Assembly: GCA_000004695.1 (NCBI GenBank)
Contig: CM000152.2
Location: 4,224,001 to 4,288,000, forward strand
Direction of reading: 5' to 3'
DNA: 64,000 bases
Source: Dictyostelium discoideum
Taxonomy: Eukaryota
The notes below the pieces were generated by a model. It had not been told where the DNA came from. It did not search any database and was given only the letters and a program-made list of their open reading frames with translations. The position numbers and the translations under genes are program-made. Of this stretch, positions 48,791 through 63,147 are shown in pieces (within the stretch, counting starts at the first letter, position 1; every line of letters begins with the position of its first letter).

Positions 48791-53032
<4,242 letters not shown>

Positions 53033-54354: not shown

Positions 54355-55200
54355 ATGCCAAGTAAAGAATTTATTATTCCATTAATTTTATTATGTTTTT
54401 ATTCAGTAAATGGATTTGTAGCAGTAATATCATCATTGGTAGAATTATTTATACACAAAGCATCATGGAACTCAATCAAAATATTTTTTTATAGTCTATT
54501 AATTTTACAATGTTTATGTAGATGTATTATTATTGGTTGGGGAATGATCGAAACTGTTCAAGGTGGTGAATTTTATAGTAATTTTCCATCATTATTATTT
54601 ATTTCATATGCTGGTTTAGTCGCATTACAAATGTAAGATTAATAATTATAATTCCATATGCAATGGATTTAAACAATAAAATAAAAAAAAAAAAATAAAA
54701 AAAAAAAAAAATATTAACACACACACAAATAAATTAATTATTTATTTTTTTATTTTTTTTTTATTTTAATATTTTAGGATTCAATTTTTACCAAATGATA
54801 ATCAATATTTATTATTATCAGAAGGTAAAAAAAATAATCATAAAGTTAAAGTTGGAACCAACATTTTAATATTTTTTAATTTATTTATGTATTTTGGAAT
54901 GTTTTTATTATTTGGAATTGCAGAGAAACAAGTTGGAAATTCAACTAGTTTTAATCATCATGGTAATCATAATTCTACAACATCTACATCAACTGATGAA
55001 ATACCTTTGGTTTCAACAGAAGTTGGAGAATTATATCTTTTTGGTGACAAAGATCCAATTTATATTGTATTGGATTGTTTTTATTTTGTATGTTTATTAT
55101 TATTATTAATTTTTCATTCTTATGTTGGTTGGAAAACTTATAAAAGAAATAAAGATTTATTTGGTATAAAAGTAAGTTTTAAGAAAAAAAAAAAAAAAAT

Positions 55201-55236
<36 letters not shown>

Positions 55237-56707
55237 TATTGATTATTAATTTTAAAAAAAATAGTTAAATGTAATTCATTTAATTTTATTAATTTGTATA
55301 TTTATTAGATCATTATTAGTAATAATTGATCCATCATCACCAAATAATTCAATATTACATATTGATACAGAATCATGGTTAATTTATATTTATACTATAT
55401 CATATTATGTAGTTGGTGAGATTATACCGGGAATGTTGTTGATAGTGATTGAATTTCTATTACCATATCATAAAAGAAAAGATTTTATAAATATTGGTGG
55501 AGAATTATCAAGTTATCAAGATGTTTGGAAATCAGAGAATATTGCAATTCATGAATTGCTAGGAATGGGTGGTAGTGGTGCTATGGTGCATAAATGTACC
55601 GTAAAGAAAGGTCCATTACGTGGTGGTACTTTTGCAGTGAAAGTAATGAAAGATTGTACAAATGAAGATATTGAATCGTTAGAGAATGAAATTAGAGTCT
55701 ATGAAAAACTAAAGTCACCCTATATCGTCTCCTATCAAGGTTCAAGTAAAGTCGTTGGTTCAAGTGGTCAAATCTTTGAGATTCGACTATTCATGGAATA
55801 CATCCCACATACATTAGATAAATATCTATTAGCAAGGTCAGTTTGTGGTGATTCAAATGGTGGTGGTTCAAGTAGAAATTTAAAAAATTATTTTTTACAC
55901 ATGCAAGAATATCAATCTTCACCACAATCTTCAATTTCATATTATCAGAATAATAATAATAATAATAACAATTCACCATTAATACAACCACAACAACAAC
56001 AACAATATGTCTATCCATATTATTTTAGATATAGTCAAGTTGTTTGGTATTTATATCAAATTTCAATTGGTTTGGATAATTTACATGCAAATAAAATTGC
56101 TCATAGAGATTTAAAATCAAATAATATTTTTGTAACTTTATCAGAGAGTGAAGTTAAAATTTGTAAAATTGGTGATTTCGATATCTCTAGATCTTTTAAT
56201 AATCCAAAAGTTTTAAATGTTTTATCAAATCCAACAGCTTTACAACAACAAAAATTAAATAATTTCTTTCAATCAGCAACAACAACAACAACAACAGAAC
56301 AAACAACAGAGCCAATAGAGGTAGCAGCAACAACAACACCTCAAACAATTCATTCAGCATTTCAACATGATATTTTATCTTTTGGTTTTATTGTTTTAGA
56401 CTTTTTAACTTTATCAAACTATAGTTGTTTTGACTCAAAATTTGATACTTCAAACTACTATGATGATGATAAATTCAATAATAAATCAAATACAAAAATT
56501 AAAAAACCAGATTTACCAGATTATATAAAAAAAGATGAAAAACTTTGGGAACCTGTCATTCAACTTTATAAAAGTTGTACATCTGATGATCCAAATAAAC
56601 GACCTTCTTCACTTGGTGTTAAATTTCATTTAGCCAATCTTTATAAAGATATTATAGAGTCTGGCACTGAAGTTTGGTCAATTGAAAAAGATTCTTCAAG
56701 TAAATGA
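54355..56707 (+). CDS. Seven-transmembrane domain fused to a C-terminal Ser/Thr protein-kinase-like domain; exons 54355-54632, 54778-55171, 55265-56707
   Basis: Seven predicted hydrophobic helices in exons 1-3. Kinase motifs are LGMGGSGAMVHKC, FAVKVMK, IAHRDLKSNNIFV and KIGDFDISRS (DFD instead of DFG), with an N/T-rich insert in the activation segment. Introns are GTAAGA 54633 to tttag 54777, and GTAAGT 55172 to aaatag 55264 (this acceptor was chosen for phase consistency). Confidence 0.7.
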
Positions 56708-56808: not shown

Positions 56809-57653
56809 ACCTCTGGTGAAAGTAATAATTAAATTTAATTTTATTTATTTATTTATTTCTTTTATTTTTTTTTTTATTAGAATATTTAAATCATGGATTT
56901 TGGTTTTTTTAAATTATTCATTCTCTTTATTATTTAAAACAAAATGACCAGGTAAAAGATCGGCCATGATCGGCCAAAAAAAAATATATATATTTTTTTT
57001 TATATATTTTATTTTAAATTTATAACTAATCCGGTATGAATTGGTGTATTATTTTTGACAAAAAATTCATATATATATATTTTTTTTTTTCTTTCTTTTT
57101 AATTAATTTGTAAATTTGAAGGATAGCCCTGGGAACAAAAAACTGAAATATTCCACTGCATGTCTGTTTGGGTTGAGATTTTGTATTCTTTTTAAAATTG
57201 AATGAATTAAGTGAGCCCTGATGTTTTACTCTTTTTTTATTTGGTAATTGTTTGTATTGGTTTATTAAATTTGGGAAAATATTTCTCTCTATGTTGTGTA
57301 TTCTGTGGATTTTTAAAAATCTTCTTTTATATTCTTTGATTTTTTTTTTTTTAATTATTATTATTATTATTATTAACTTCAATTGAAACTTTCATTTTGT
57401 TGTTTTAATTTTTTTAAAAAAAAAAAAAAAAAAATAGAAAACAATGAATTTAAAAAAAAAAAAATGTGTAAAATTTGGAGAGTAATTATTTATTTTTATT
57501 TTTAATTTTTAATTTTTTTTTTTTTTTTTTTTTACTTTTCTTTTTTTTTTTTTTTTTTCGTTGGTGATTTGGGATGTATAAAAATTTTATAAAAAAAAAA
57601 TTTTTTAGATATTTTTTTTTTATAAAATTTTTTTTTTTAATTTTTTTAAATTT

Positions 57654-58029: not shown

Positions 58030-59583
58030 ATGGATAAAAATAATAATAATAATAATAGTAATGGGGGACATGAAAATTTATTTAAAGATCTTCAAAATCA
58101 AAAAAGAGTTCAAAATCCATCATTTAGTTCTGGTCAAAGTAGAACAGTGCCATCAATTTCTGCTCGTGGCGTGGCACCAATTAGCTCATCATCAAGTTCA
58201 TCATCTATTTCAACAACTAATAACACTACTACTACTACTACAAGTGGTACTGGTAGTACATCATCACCAGTATCAAAAGGTGTACCATTAATACCAATTG
58301 GTGCATCAAGATTTAAACAACAACCATCAACAGATGTTTGGAGATCAGCAAGAGGACAACAATTATCAGAATCACTTTGGTCGTCTTTTAAACAAGCATT
58401 GCAAAATTCTCAAAATTCTCAACAATCTTTATCACAATCTTTATCACAATCTCATTCAACAAATAGTGAGGTATGTATAAATATATATATATTTTTTAAA
58501 ATAATTTTAATTTTTACTAATTATTTTTATTAATTATTTTTTTTTTTTTTTTTTTAGATTAATAATATTTTATTGGAGTTTGTAAAACATTATAATTCAG
58601 AATATGATAAATGGAATGTTGAAATGGGAGTTGATTATGCTAATACAAAAGTATATGGAATTAAATTATATTGTACACCAGTATTAGATATCCAAACCAC
58701 ATTATATTTGACTAGACAACTTTGTTCTTATGTTTTAAATTTATCAAAGGCATTAACTGATGATAATTTGGATATACCAGATGGTTTACATTTCATATGT
58801 TTAATAAACATTTTATCAAGATCACCATTGAATTCAACATTATTACATCAAGAGAATGCATTGGCACATCCATTTCAAGCAGCACGTCTTGCATCTTATA
58901 AACTCTCTTCTTTTAGAGACAAAAATAATCCATCCTTTACAAAATGGTGGCCATACCTTAAAGTTTTATTAGCTAATTGTTGTCAAATTGCTACAAATTT
59001 CGTACATGATAAACAAAATTTATCTTTTAATTCTTTAAGGTATGGCAATGTAAATAATAATAATAATAGTAATAATAATAATAATATTGTAAATAGTACC
59101 AGTTTAAGTAGTGGTAGTTTACTTTCAAATGGTGGTGGTATTAGTACTAGTGAACCAGAGATTTCACCATCAACATCACCATTAACAGGTACAACTCCAA
59201 CATCACCATCAAGTTCTTGGTCATCATCTTCAATAACTAATCATCAAATTCAACATCAAATTTTAATGCAACAACAACAACAACAACAAGCTCAACAACA
59301 ACATACTCAACAATACTTTAATACGATTGGACAAAGTAGTAGTTATTCCTATACAAACGTTATCAATGGTGTTTCAACCAATAATAGTACAATAACAGCA
59401 ACAACTACAAGTAATTTCTTAATTCAACATATATTTAAACTTGGTACAATTTCAATTTTGATGGATTCTTTACAATTCTTTAATGATTTCTTTAAAACTC
59501 TTCAACCAAAAGATTCAGAAGATTCATTTAGATTATTGATTATTGATACATTAGGTATTTTAATTAGTGGTAATGGTGGTTTG

Positions 59584-59625
<42 letters not shown>

Positions 59626-60540
59626 GCAACATCAACAAATACAACACCAAATACAATAATTAATAATACAACAATAAATAACAGCGGTTTAACAAATAGT
59701 ATTAATAATAATAATGGTGGTAATAATAATTTAAATAAACTTAAAGAACCAGGTAACGAAATTAAAACAATTATAAATTGTATTGGTATGAAAGCGTATA
59801 TTAAAACAAGTAAAAAAGTAACATCATTACAAAACGAATTTCAATTTCAATTACATGTTATTAGGGTGATTAAAGAATTGATTTCAAATAATTTAAATAA
59901 TGCAAAATATTTTAATTCTCATAGAGGTTTTGAAAAAATTCAAGAGGTTATATTATGGGTAACTCAATGTTTTAAACCAACAGATTCACATACATTCACT
60001 GATGAAAGTTGTTTAGATTTTGATACTTCAATGCCTGCTCAAGAATTATCTGCCTTATTAATTGGTGCAACTTCTTCAAATTCTTCTAATAATCTACCAA
60101 ATTTAACAAATTCAATATCATCACCCTCACACTCATCCTCCTCCTCCTCCTCAACAACAACAAATATTAATAATAGTAATAATAATACAGCAACAGCAAC
60201 AACAACAACAAGTAATGTAATAATTCCACCAACAATGTATGATAGTTTAAATTCAGTTTTAAATTCATTAAAATATACGACTTATTCAGAGAAATCATCA
60301 TCACTTATAAAATCACCACCAATTATTGTTAAAAGAAGTAAAGTTGTACAACTTTCACAATTGTTTCAAGTTTTACATTCATTTTCTTTTACACTTGTAC
60401 CATTTTCAAAAATTCAAACTAATTCCTCCTCTTCTTCTGGTAATTTAAATTACAATATATATTCCTCCTCTTCAGCATCATTTATAAATAATAATAATAA
60501 TAATAATAACTGTAATATATCATCACCAACAAATCAATCT

Positions 60541-60616
<76 letters not shown>

Positions 60617-60858
60617 TTTTACCAAGATCAAATTCATCTTATTCAATATTTAGAAGAGGTGATAGTTTAAATACAATCATTGATATCAATCAAGATAATA
60701 ATAATAGTAATAGTAATAGTAATAATAGTAGTACACTTGATATTTTAAATAATAGTCAAGATACAATTGTAGATAATAATAATGGTAGTAATATTGATTT
60801 TGAAGCAACAATAACTACTAATACAACAACGGTCGTGACAGCAACCGTTAATTTAACA

Positions 60859-60895
<37 letters not shown>

Positions 60896-62338
60896 TGATT
60901 GATGGTAATACCGAAGTAACTGGTGGATCAGCACATAATAGTTGGTCAAGTTATACAAATATAAATGAACAATTTCAACAATTATCATTAACATCATCAA
61001 CGACAGCAACAGGATCATCACCAACATCACCAACAGCATTTCAATATCAATCAAAACCAATTGATAAAATGTTTGTGAATACATTATTAATTGAAACAAT
61101 TTTTGAAAAATTATTTTCACAATTAAATCTTAGTGCTTTAAATGAAAATCATTCAACAACTTCTTCTTTACCAATTAGTCAAAATTTAAGTGATGATTCC
61201 TCAAATACAAATACAAATAATAATAATACATCATTTGGTAAAATTTATATTTCAGATAATTTACAACAAAATCCAAACACTGATAAATCATTATCATGTG
61301 GTAAAATTTTTAATAAGATTAAAAATTCAACACCAGAACTTCAATTACAAATAATTGAATATTTAATTAAATTAGTAATAGAGAATCCATATTGTTTACC
61401 AATTCTTAGAAGATTTAATCTTTGGGAATTAATATTTTCTGATAATTTTTATTATTCATCACCACAAGCAACTTTAAATGATGATGATATTGAATATTTA
61501 TTAAATTCAACCACCACTACCACCACCTCATCATCAACTAATATTTCAGAAGAACAATTAAAGAAACGTAAATTATATTTATTTAATGGATTAAGATTAG
61601 GTTGTTTAGGTTTAATTCAATTCTTTTCAACATTTAATAATAGAGATAATTTTGAAGAGATTTGTATAATTTTAACAGAGATGAGAAAATCATTATTAAA
61701 ATCACCAGCATCAGTGATTGAGTTATGTCAATTATTAATTAATATCACTAAATCAAATCCTCAAGGTACAATTCAATCATTGATTAAATTAAGAATTTTC
61801 CAACAAATTCCACAAATGATTCAAGTCCTATTCAAATATGAACAGGCTAGTAACTCTCAATTTGGTTTATTACATAAGAAAGCTAGAAATATCATTTTCT
61901 CTTATCTAGGCCAATTGATAGTTCACGAAGAATTATCTTATCATGCAGTTGTTGAAAAAGAATTGATAGATGTTTTATTTTTATTATTAAGAAAAGTTGA
62001 AACTAAAACTTTTTCAATTACTCAAATATTTTTCTTAATGAAATTAAATGTTTCATCTTCTTCACCATCAGTTACAACTTTATTATCTTCTTCTTCACAA
62101 GTATTAAATTCATATCAACAACAACAACAACAACCACAACAACAATCATCACAACCACAACAACAATCATCACAACCACAACAAATTCCACAATCCCAAC
62201 TACAACAACAAAATCAAACACAGTCATTACAATCATCATCATTATCATCAACATCATTATTATTAACATCACAACATCAACAACCATCAACATCATTATT
62301 ATCAACATCACAGTTTTCATCATCATCATCCTTATTGC

Positions 62339-62421
<83 letters not shown>

Positions 62422-62441
62422 CCACAACTACTACAACAAAC

Positions 62442-62484
<43 letters not shown>

Positions 62485-63035
62485 GTTCAAACTCCATCAT
62501 CACCTCAAACATTAGCATCATTATTAGGAAATTCAAGTTCAAATACATTAACATCATCATCATCAACATTATCATTAAATGAATCATCAACATTATCAAG
62601 ATTACCAACATCAAATAATTTATCAGAATTATATAGGACATATATTTCCGAGTTATCAATGATTAAAGAAGAGACATCATGTACTTATGATTTTAAATTT
62701 GATTAATTTTATCAATGTTGGATGGTATTAGACAAATTATTAAAAACAATCCAAAGAAACAAAATCTATTTAAAAAGTTTCGTGTTTTCATTAAAATCGT
62801 TAACTTGGTTAATGCTGATGATAAAAAAGAACGTTTGTCAGTTTTATGTCATTCAGTATTACGTACTGTAATTTTATTAATGGCAAATAATCCAAAAATT
62901 AAAAAACATTTTCGTAATCATATTGGTTATGATACAATTAAAGATTTAATTATTAAATCTGAAGGTATTGTTTCTGAAACAACAATGAATATTTTATTTG
63001 ATATGGTAATTATTTTTAATTTAATAATGATAATC

Positions 63036-63124
<89 letters not shown>

Positions 63125-63147
63125 TTGAAATAATATTAATATTAATA

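Follow-up and report, generated by a model that had tools for sequence, protein, structure and literature searches.

Does the Dictyostelium discoideum locus at positions 54355 to 56707 of the 64,000-nucleotide stretch of DNA analyzed here (the window) encode one protein in which a seven-transmembrane (7TM) domain is joined directly to a protein kinase, and if so, what kind of 7TM domain and what kind of kinase have been joined? An earlier note on this DNA, made from the sequence alone, had described three spliced exons encoding seven hydrophobic helices and a kinase-like domain, and had suggested that they might represent an uncharacterised receptor-kinase class.

The 7tmk2 gene and its published record

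When the three exons are spliced they yield 2115 nt with 704 open codons, and the coordinates and junctions proposed in the earlier note are exact: in an exact-sequence look-up the 704-aa translation equals XP_640911.1 (UniProt Q54U65; DDB_G0281331) of D. discoideum AX4 at every residue. The entry DDB0220006 (7TMK2) in Table S2 of Goldberg et al. 2006 has the same sequence over the part compared. At the composition of the window a stop should turn up roughly once in 10.8 codons, and log10 P for an open frame of 704 codons is -29.6. What lies here is 7tmk2, a D. discoideum gene that is annotated but functionally unstudied, in which a 7TM domain is joined to a kinase; of this identity and architecture there is virtually no doubt. 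The gene is laid out as follows:

54355..56707, + strand: complete 7tmk2 coding sequence from start to stop codon, in three exons; spliced translation identical to XP_640911.1 / Q54U65
54355..54632, + strand: exon 1, encoding TM1, TM2 and the bulk of TM3 (aa 1-92, with 2 nt of codon 93)
54633..54777, + strand: intron 1, 145 nt, GTAAG...TAG, 10% GC
54778..55171, + strand: exon 2, running from the last part of TM3 through TM4, the long TM4-TM5 loop and TM5 into TM6 (aa 93-224)
55172..55264, + strand: intron 2, 93 nt, GTAAG...TAG, 5% GC
55265..56707, + strand: exon 3, aa 225-704 plus stop (remainder of TM6, TM7, the linker and the entire kinase domain)

The GC content of the exons is 22-27%, against the 10% and 5% of the introns, and because these two introns interrupt the gene, a program-made list of open reading frames gives it as three. 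In D. citrinum the exons are 91-95% identical (exon 1 at 95%, gap-free), intron 1 lies at the same position (121 nt; 63% identity with gaps) and an intron of 85 nt lies at the matching exon 2/3 junction. Since TM6-TM7 and the kinase share one uninterrupted exon, the fusion is independent of the splice model, and the in-frame joining of a 7TM domain to a Ser/Thr-type kinase in a single gene, as originally proposed, is borne out by this exon and by colinear orthologues. The flanks of 7tmk2 were also checked for RNA genes and tRNAs, and none was found there.

The suggestion of an uncharacterised class does not stand, since the protein was named 7TMK2 and tabulated in 2006, and carries the same name in UniProt. 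Likewise RpkA, named in the earlier note as the sole kinase-bearing 7TM protein of this lineage, is joined by 7TMK1 and 7TMK2, both named in the Dictyostelium kinome of Goldberg et al. 2006 (PMC1420674). That paper describes 7TMK2 as a 'kinase fused to seven TMDs, no close homologs' and goes no further. In 2018, van den Hoogen et al. (PMC5784254) cited 7TMK2 as one of a pair of D. discoideum proteins that are similar to the GPCR-TKLs of oomycetes and have homologues in amoebozoans, and subsequent surveys mention amoebal or amoebozoan 7TM-kinase fusions with 7TMK2 unnamed (PMC10463195; PMC12716839); apart from the kinome paper, this literature, in which the amoebozoan fusions are treated together with those of oomycetes and choanoflagellates, dates from 2018, 2023 and 2025. 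In our literature search we found no functional study of 7tmk2 and no paper naming DDB_G0281331, DDB0220006 or Q54U65, and the name '7tmk' appeared in the kinome paper alone. The gene and its 7TM-kinase architecture are thus already known, and, with publications and database entries going back to 2006, the architecture is no discovery. What is added here is the very likely kinship of the 7TM part with THH1/TOM1 proteins, the fusions of related modules to a canonical kinase and to a RING finger in related amoebae, and the finding that DFD/DFN is clade-wide, that the APE loss is limited to Dictyostelia and that the catalytic residues are fixed. Functionally, its product is still a blank among the signalling proteins of a model organism.

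A divergent, probably THH1/TOM1-type seven-helix module

The N-terminal part of the protein comprises one feature:

54355..55483, + strand: 7TM module, aa 1-297, spanning both introns; divergent THH1/TOM1/TOM3-type, with a predicted GPCR-like fold

The seven helices of the earlier note are recovered both as seven hydrophobic peaks in a Kyte-Doolittle profile and as seven AlphaFold helices (residues 4-32, 41-66, 72-95, 112-145, 186-216, 222-245 and 262-289). Topology prediction, which the earlier note had called for, gives an N-out/C-in arrangement: lysines and arginines of the module number eight inside against one outside, and all three N-x-S/T sequons lie outside. The TM4-TM5 loop, long, rich in Ser, Thr and Asn and bearing N-glycosylation sequons, would accordingly be extracellular or luminal, and a linker of about 30 residues leads from the bundle to the cytosolic kinase. 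The module is thus predicted to be a seven-helix bundle with GPCR-type packing and an outside N-terminus. Foldseek comparison of the module with the PDB was weakly significant (best E 4e-3), and because the AlphaFold alignment for the module comprised only eight sequences, this match may partly reflect generic seven-helix packing.

We next consider the family of this module, for which the earlier note had suggested a comparison with THH1/TOM1 (DUF1084). The D. discoideum module itself does not match PF06454 in Pfam even at E <= 10 (gathering cut-off 25 bits), and Heterostelium 7TMK2 reaches 15.6 bits (E 0.011), below that cut-off; the assignment was therefore made through intermediates and profile-profile comparison. 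In an exhaustive HMMER search of 1.84 billion representative sequences, the 7TM profile gave seven matches, all from Evosea amoebae, to which the module is confined. They include two EukProt transcripts, Phalansterium solitarium P0011 (E 2.2e-5) and Cavostelium apophysatum P0012 (E 2.5e-4), and both exceed the PF06454 gathering score (28.5 and 36.9 bits, respectively). The suggested comparison was thus apt: hhalign aligns the 7TMK2 7TM profile with these relatives above the cut-off at 98.6% probability (E 9e-16, 240 columns), and PF06454 is the sole recurrent Pfam family in the module set, matched by four of its eight members. 7TMK2, P0012 and P0011 also share the signatures 'F..FP..(L/V)F.S...LQ' in TM3 and 'YY..GE..P' in TM7. 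Word-indexed searches with the module alone or with the eight-sequence alignment were blank, even for an orthologue 91-95% identical; these blanks are attributed to a limitation with hydrophobic queries, so they were not counted as evidence and the exhaustive HMMER search was used instead. On these comparisons the module very likely belongs to the THH1/TOM1/TOM3 (PF06454) superfamily, as a strongly diverged homologue of THH1/TOM1. This would place it apart from receptors of the cAR, Frizzled or GABA-B type, and could guide experiments.

The plant THH1/TOM1/TOM3 proteins (PF06454, formerly DUF1084) are seven-pass and N-out, like 7TMK2, and figure in the cited literature only as a host factor exploited by tobamoviruses. 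TOM1 and TOM3 are described as seven-pass membrane proteins, with no mention of a catalytic domain, whereas 7TMK2 adds a C-terminal kinase and the long Ser/Thr/Asn-rich TM4-TM5 loop, and in D. discoideum falls below Pfam detection. An endolysosomal location of 7TMK2 would be an extrapolation from plant TOM1.

Colinear 7TM-kinase orthologues of 7TMK2 occur in six other genera; they were found in D. citrinum, Polysphondylium, Tieghemostelium, Acytostelium and Heterostelium, and the same fusion is seen in transcripts assembled from Ceratiomyxa and Cavostelium. Over the whole length, BLASTP aligns 7TMK2 colinearly with Cavostelium P0012 at 23% identity. In this protein the same 7TM family is followed by a kinase of canonical TKL type that has both DFG and PPE (PK_Tyr_Ser-Thr, 1.4e-57), while in Phalansterium P0011 it is followed by a C3HC4 RING finger, without a kinase. 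Relatives that carry a RING ligase where 7TMK2 has its kinase, or that keep a fully canonical kinase, point to a modular design in which a sensor is coupled directly to an effector. A wider proposal, which we regard as doubtful though worth stating, is that the module is a portable THH1/TOM1-type endomembrane sensor wired to different cytosolic enzymes across Evosea. In Dictyostelia and Ceratiomyxa the partner would be an atypical kinase; in Cavostelium it would be a TKL kinase of canonical type, and in Phalansterium an E3 ligase of the RING class. Were this true, 7tmk2 would offer, in a genetically tractable organism, the first effector-linked read-out of TOM1/THH1-family sensing.

An atypical kinase domain under constraint

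The kinase domain and its motifs lie entirely within exon 3:

55541..56662, + strand: protein kinase domain, aa ~317-690 (Pfam Pkinase and PK_Tyr_Ser-Thr; PDB and Foldseek matches)
55562..55579, + strand: Gly-rich loop GMGGSG, aa 324-329; G324, G326 and G329 invariant in a five-species alignment
55631..55642, + strand: FAVK (VAIK-type), aa 347-350, with catalytic Lys350, which is invariant
55844..56020, + strand: low-complexity insert 1, aa 418-476, with poly-N and poly-Q runs; AlphaFold pLDDT < 50
56102..56125, + strand: catalytic loop HRDLKSNN, aa 504-511; D506, K508 and N511 invariant in the five-species alignment
56174..56182, + strand: DFD replacing DFG, aa 528-530; D528 and F529 invariant
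56198..56347, + strand: low-complexity insert in the activation segment, aa 536-585, with no APE downstream

Both Pfam families score well above their cut-offs (Pkinase 74.3 bits against 31.7; PK_Tyr_Ser-Thr 67.9 against 23.1), which upholds the kinase-like assignment, and the Gly-loop, VAIK-like lysine, HRDLKSNN, DFD and activation-segment insert of the earlier note were all located. JAK2 and RAF are among the PDB sequence matches, the best of which are TK/TKL kinases, and the Foldseek neighbors are JAK2, FGFR, BRAF and BMPR2; the domain is nevertheless filed as Other-Unique and is not clearly TKL. Insert 1, which the earlier note did not mention, is far shorter in Ceratiomyxa.

The earlier note had also raised a pseudokinase-coupled receptor, in which the dictyostelid kinase would be catalytically dead and act, on the cytosolic side of the 7TM bundle, as an allosteric module or a scaffold subject to regulation. 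We consider this unlikely, though it is the most serious of the competing readings, and several features speak for it. DFG is replaced throughout the 7TMK2 clade: six species have D at its third position and a seventh has N. The APE, as the earlier note had observed, is absent, with none before DILSFG (593-598); the APE/P+1 loop is missing from all dictyostelid orthologues, a loss specific to Dictyostelia, since Ceratiomyxa keeps APE and Cavostelium has PPE. The segment also holds the insert of about 50 aa, which is rearranged in another D. discoideum strain and is unconstrained (dN/dS ~1.8 against D. citrinum). In addition, the HRD arginine is gone in two genera, replaced by G in Tieghemostelium (HGD) and by N in Acytostelium (HND), and the Heterostelium Gly-loop is degenerate. 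Changes of these kinds commonly flag a pseudokinase.

Against a dead kinase stands the retention of the residues for ATP binding and phosphotransfer. K350, the alpha-C glutamate E366, D506, N511 and D528 are present and, with the Gly-loop, invariant in five species, and the five residues, read directly, are kept in Acytostelium and Heterostelium too; in the DFG motif the Mg-binding aspartate is retained and the glycine alone is substituted. The same comparison with D. citrinum gives dN/dS values of 0.145 for 7TMK2 overall, 0.13 for the 7TM module and 0.26 for insert 1, while the N-lobe (0.015) and catalytic core (0.073) are the most constrained regions of the protein; by these ratios both domains are under purifying selection. 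Table S2 of the kinome paper (PMC1420674) lists 7TMK2 with FAVK, HRDLKSNN and DFD as Other/Other-Unique with status 'a'. We read this status as predicted active. Invariance of the catalytic residues, together with purifying selection on the two domains, favors an active kinase, and the evidence leans towards a domain that is active but atypical more than dead. With APE lost in Dictyostelia while the catalytic residues are fixed, 7TMK2 is a compact natural test case for how far degeneration of the activation segment can go in a kinase on which selection still acts.

A possible sensor-kinase and its counterparts

Taken together, the best explanation of the locus, and a likely one, is that 7tmk2 encodes in one polypeptide a THH1/TOM1-type 7TM module and an atypical sensor-kinase. 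The likeliest mechanism we propose tentatively, with rather less confidence. 7TMK2 would be a one-component membrane sensor-kinase, in which the 7TM bundle, on changing its conformation or its occupancy, governs the tethered kinase, atypical but catalytically competent; the kinase would then autophosphorylate or target restricted membrane-proximal substrates, and signalling could proceed without the need for heterotrimeric G proteins. For this last point we count the observation that Arabidopsis TOM1, alone among the candidates, showed no binding to GPA1, a G-alpha subunit, in a split-ubiquitin assay (PMC2530877).

The 7TM module could instead simply tether or target a constitutive kinase to one organelle and sense nothing, an improbable reading that draws on plant TOM1, a membrane platform on which a protein complex with ARL8 is built, and on the pairing of the module with different enzymatic domains, kinase or RING. 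A single helix would suffice for anchoring, however, and seven polar, charged or proline positions that are predicted to lie within the helices (R56, Q92, N127, Y131, R239, E276 and P279) are invariant family-wide. These in-helix residues, together with the dN/dS of 0.13 for the 7TM module, indicate a conserved functional core.

Still less probable is a classical G-protein-coupled receptor that uses its own kinase domain, in place of desensitisation of the GRK/PKC type, to phosphorylate its loops or tail. Such self-desensitisation was proposed for oomycete GPCR-TKLs in the paper that likens the two D. discoideum proteins to them (PMC5784254). On direct reading, however, the class-A motifs DRY, CWxP and NPxxY are absent from TM3, TM6 and TM7, the intracellular TM5-TM6 loop has only about 5 residues, and TOM1, the prototype of the family, showed no G-alpha binding in the assay noted above. 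The RING-fused module of Phalansterium suggests direct recruitment of varied effectors, and the exhaustive search of 1.84 billion representatives with the 7TM profile retrieved no oomycete or choanoflagellate proteins; since it matched none of theirs, those fusions and that of 7TMK2 are probably independent and convergent. There is next to no chance that the fusion is a gene-model artefact joining TM exons to the kinase ORF of a second gene, given that exon 3 by itself spans part of TM6, TM7 and the kinase, that introns and exon identity are conserved in D. citrinum, and that the same fusion recurs in independent gene models of five other genera and in de novo transcripts of Ceratiomyxa and Cavostelium.

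The sensor-kinase reading of 7TMK2 can be set beside other kinases fused to 7TM domains. 7TMK1 (DDB0229939; TKL/CZAK, SplA-like), the second Dictyostelium kinase fused to seven TMDs, has a canonical kinase with VAVK, HRDLSTKN and DFG, unlike 7TMK2, and looks, from sequence comparison, like a separate fusion. Paralogy of the two through a common 7TM module was considered and rejected (hhalign probability 0.1%). RpkA (GPCR-PIPK), from the same organism, shares the order of a 7TM domain and a C-terminal kinase, but its effector is a phosphatidylinositol-phosphate kinase and not an ePK, whereas that of 7TMK2 is a protein kinase; Pfam detects protein-kinase families only and no PIPK domain in 7TMK2. 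The oomycete GPCR-TKL bigrams (van den Hoogen et al. 2018) and the choanoflagellate GPCR-TKL/K proteins (eLife 2025) likewise have an N-terminal 7TM domain and then a C-terminal kinase. The oomycete type has a TKL-group kinase and often a C-terminal DEP domain, for which Pfam gives no match in 7TMK2. For the choanoflagellate GPCR-TKL/K family, convergent fusion has also been concluded (PMC12716839).

Identity and kinase domain of 7TMK2

We show that 7TMK2 of Dictyostelium discoideum (DDB_G0281331) is one polypeptide, in which an N-out/C-in helical bundle, predicted to be GPCR-like, is joined to a kinase that faces the cytosol and keeps its catalytic residues. Its gene, 7tmk2, comprises three exons in one spliced frame:

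54355-54632, + strand: exon 1
54778-55171, + strand: exon 2
55265-56707, + strand: exon 3

Joined, they form an uninterrupted reading frame of 2115 nt, and because the base composition of the window leads one to expect a stop every 10.8 codons, the probability of a 704-codon open frame arising by chance is ~10^-29.6. Both introns (145 and 93 nt) have GTAAG...TAG boundaries and a GC content of 10% and 5%, against 22-27% in the exons; the window has 22.7% GC and dictyostelid-style intergenic poly-A/T tracts. In an exact-sequence look-up, the 704-residue product proved identical to the D. discoideum AX4 protein XP_640911.1 / EAL66962.1 / UniProt Q54U65, whose gene sits on a 6.36-Mb contig. Goldberg et al. 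(2006; PMC1420674) list the same sequence, over the part compared, in their Table S2 as DDB0220006, 7TMK2; that entry gives group Other / Other-Unique, motif columns FAVK, HRDLKSNN and DFD, and status 'a', which we read as predicted active. The 7TM-kinase architecture of this gene is already known. The earlier note described the fusion accurately, its exons, motifs, DFD, insert and missing APE all matching 7TMK2, but its proposal of an unrecognised receptor-kinase class is unsupported, because 7TMK2 was named and tabulated in 2006. In 2018 van den Hoogen et al. (PMC5784254) counted 7TMK2 as one of two D. discoideum proteins that resemble oomycete GPCR-TKLs. GPCR-type transmembrane kinases were surveyed in oomycetes, ciliates and amoebae in 2023 (PMC10463195), and a convergent choanoflagellate GPCR-TKL/K family was described in eLife in 2025 (PMC12716839). 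A literature search on the 7tmk2 gene identifiers found no paper mentioning them.

Scores for the kinase domain far exceed the Pfam cut-off. The closest solved kinases are JAK2 and RAF by sequence, and JAK2, FGFR, BRAF and BMPR2 by predicted structure; for the less derived domain of Ceratiomyxa they are JAK2, GCN2, OSR1, ASK1 and LIMK, all at ~E 1e-17. The 7TMK2 domain is a genuine but unplaced ePK, in agreement with "Other-Unique". The Gly-loop glycines, K350, E366, D506, K508, N511, D528 and F529 are invariant in a five-species alignment. The DFG glycine is substituted across the entire 7TMK2 clade, giving DFD in D. discoideum, D. citrinum, Polysphondylium, Acytostelium, Heterostelium and Ceratiomyxa, and DFN in Tieghemostelium; the HRD arginine is replaced by G in Tieghemostelium and by N in Acytostelium. 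Ceratiomyxa keeps APE (FRAPEM) and no dictyostelid 7TMK2 orthologue has it, so its loss is specific to Dictyostelia. The D. discoideum protein carries two low-complexity inserts (aa 418-476 and 536-585), both disordered in the AlphaFold prediction.

dN/dS (Nei-Gojobori) of 7TMK2, D. discoideum versus D. citrinum
Whole protein: 0.145
N-lobe: 0.015
Catalytic core: 0.073
C-lobe: 0.20
Activation-segment insert: about 1.8

The comparison shows that purifying selection acts on both the 7TM and kinase parts. From the sequence, an atypical kinase that is still active seems likelier to us than a dead one, because the catalytic residues are fixed while the activation segment is degenerate; the same fixed residues stand against a pseudokinase scaffold, which survives best of the four alternatives weighed here.

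A second D. discoideum strain (P0008, 712 aa) was compared with the 7TMK2 encoded in the window at aa 146-185, 418-476, 536-585 and 620-635. Within the species, length varies only in the TM4-TM5 loop, which is rich in Ser/Thr, and in the low-complexity kinase tracts, the activation-segment insert being rearranged with its net length unchanged; the helices and catalytic motifs are nearly identical.

The seven-helix module and its relatives

From an 8-sequence alignment, AlphaFold predicts seven helices (pTM 0.75, helix pLDDT ~90), with a predicted GPCR-type fold. Eight Lys/Arg residues lie in the predicted cytosolic loops and post-TM7 segment, versus one on the opposite side, and all three N-x-S/T sequons of the module are on the outer side; this places the N-terminus outside and the C-terminal kinase in the cytosol, and the seven-pass arrangement first proposed from sequence is upheld. 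Residues Y16, F45, R56, P78, Q92, N127, Y131, R239, Y271, G275, E276, P279 and P291 are invariant family-wide. Several are polar and predicted to be intrahelical, which argues for a probable functional core and against a plain anchor with no further role, the second-ranked alternative.

The D. discoideum module itself has no Pfam match. A word-indexed protein search with 7TM-only queries returned nothing, missing even a 95%-identical orthologue found with the full-length query; such negatives for hydrophobic queries should not be trusted. An exhaustive HMMER search of 1.84 billion representatives with the 7TM profile matched seven proteins in all: dictyostelid and Ceratiomyxa orthologues and transcripts from Cavostelium apophysatum (P0012, E 2.5e-4) and Phalansterium solitarium (P0011, E 2.2e-5). 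Both transcripts exceed the 25-bit gathering score of PF06454 (THH1/TOM1/TOM3, formerly DUF1084), at 36.9 and 28.5 bits respectively, and Heterostelium 7TMK2 matches this family at E 0.011; PF06454 is the sole Pfam family to recur among members (4/8). In a profile-profile comparison, seven 7TMK2-type modules matched the Cavostelium and Phalansterium pair at 98.6% (E 9e-16), the alignment spanning 240 columns and all seven helices. We conclude from these profiles that the module is probably a highly divergent THH1/TOM1/TOM3-superfamily domain, linked through the Cavostelium and Phalansterium intermediates, the route by which an initial hunch of DUF1084 proved right.

The Cavostelium protein joins a 7TMK2-type 7TM to a canonical TKL-type kinase (HRDIKPEN, DFG, PPE; PK_Tyr_Ser-Thr E 1.4e-57). 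That of Phalansterium (EP01116_P009914, 347 aa) has no kinase domain and carries a C-terminal C3HC4 RING finger (zf-C3HC4_3, E 3.7e-16) after its PF06454 7TM, a 7TM-E3 ligase architecture not met in the literature consulted. All carriers of the module belong to Evosea (Eumycetozoa, Variosea). The 7TM part of 7TMK1, the other D. discoideum kinase with seven transmembrane domains, is unrelated (hhalign probability 0.1%) and its kinase is canonical; the two Dictyostelium proteins therefore look like independent fusions. No oomycete or choanoflagellate protein among the 1.84 billion representatives was matched by the 7TM profile. The pattern fits a convergent origin of the different "GPCR-kinase" fusions, as was concluded for the choanoflagellate family (PMC12716839). 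The interest of 7tmk2 lies in the lack of a functional study in the literature, the new THH1/TOM1 support and the kinase-or-RING modularity among related amoebae.

A possible mode of action

7TMK2 would act as a one-component sensor-kinase, in which the state of the 7TM bundle would control the tethered kinase, and this kinase may target itself or neighbouring substrates with no need for heterotrimeric G proteins. Such independence is suggested because TOM1, a plant seven-pass protein, was the sole Arabidopsis candidate without G-alpha binding (PMC2530877), DRY, CWxP and NPxxY motifs were not found on direct reading of the 7TMK2 helices, and one relative pairs the module with a RING ligase. 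These points also tell against a classical GPCR bearing a kinase for self-desensitisation, which ranks third. By analogy with plant TOM1, an endolysosomal site of action is a reasonable possibility.

One gene and its neighbours

Exon 3 starts at residue 225, within TM6, and continues unbroken through TM7, the linker and the entire kinase domain; the physical fusion is therefore independent of splicing. The syntenic D. citrinum gene has two introns at the same positions, with exon identities of 95, 94 and 91% and gapped intron identities of just 63% and 77%. Polysphondylium violaceum, Tieghemostelium lacteum, Acytostelium subglobosum and Heterostelium album each have a predicted protein with colinear 7TM and kinase parts, and in Ceratiomyxa fruticulosa and Cavostelium apophysatum one de novo-assembled transcript carries the fusion. 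A gene-model artefact, with the TM exons and kinase ORF as two genes, is the weakest alternative given the shared exon and conserved intron positions.

The neighbours leave clean boundaries, at 53032 and 58030:

48791-53032, - strand: single ORF of 1413 aa, rich in poly-N/poly-Q
58030-63128+, + strand: large multi-exon gene (ORFs 58030-58533, 58573-62706, 62715-63128...)

The 1413-aa ORF contains a Cys/His-rich stretch, CNFHSTQDITFLCKTCNSVPCCNICVTSEKYHRGH, resembling a B-box-type zinc finger; in D. citrinum, a gene for 1382 aa occupies the syntenic position upstream of 7tmk2. The downstream gene has a syntenic D. citrinum counterpart of 3973 aa with Neurobeachin, PH_BEACH, Beach and WD40 domains, and is therefore assigned to the BEACH/Lvs family. 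In the 3' intergenic region, 56930-57230 had no Rfam match at E <= 1, no tRNA and no conservation in the D. citrinum intergenic region. This patch is lower in AT than its flanks (e.g. GACCAGGTAAAAGATCGGCCATGATCGGCC, GGATAGCCCTGGGAAC...CACTGCATGTCTGTTTGGGTTGAG); 3' UTR or drift may account for it.
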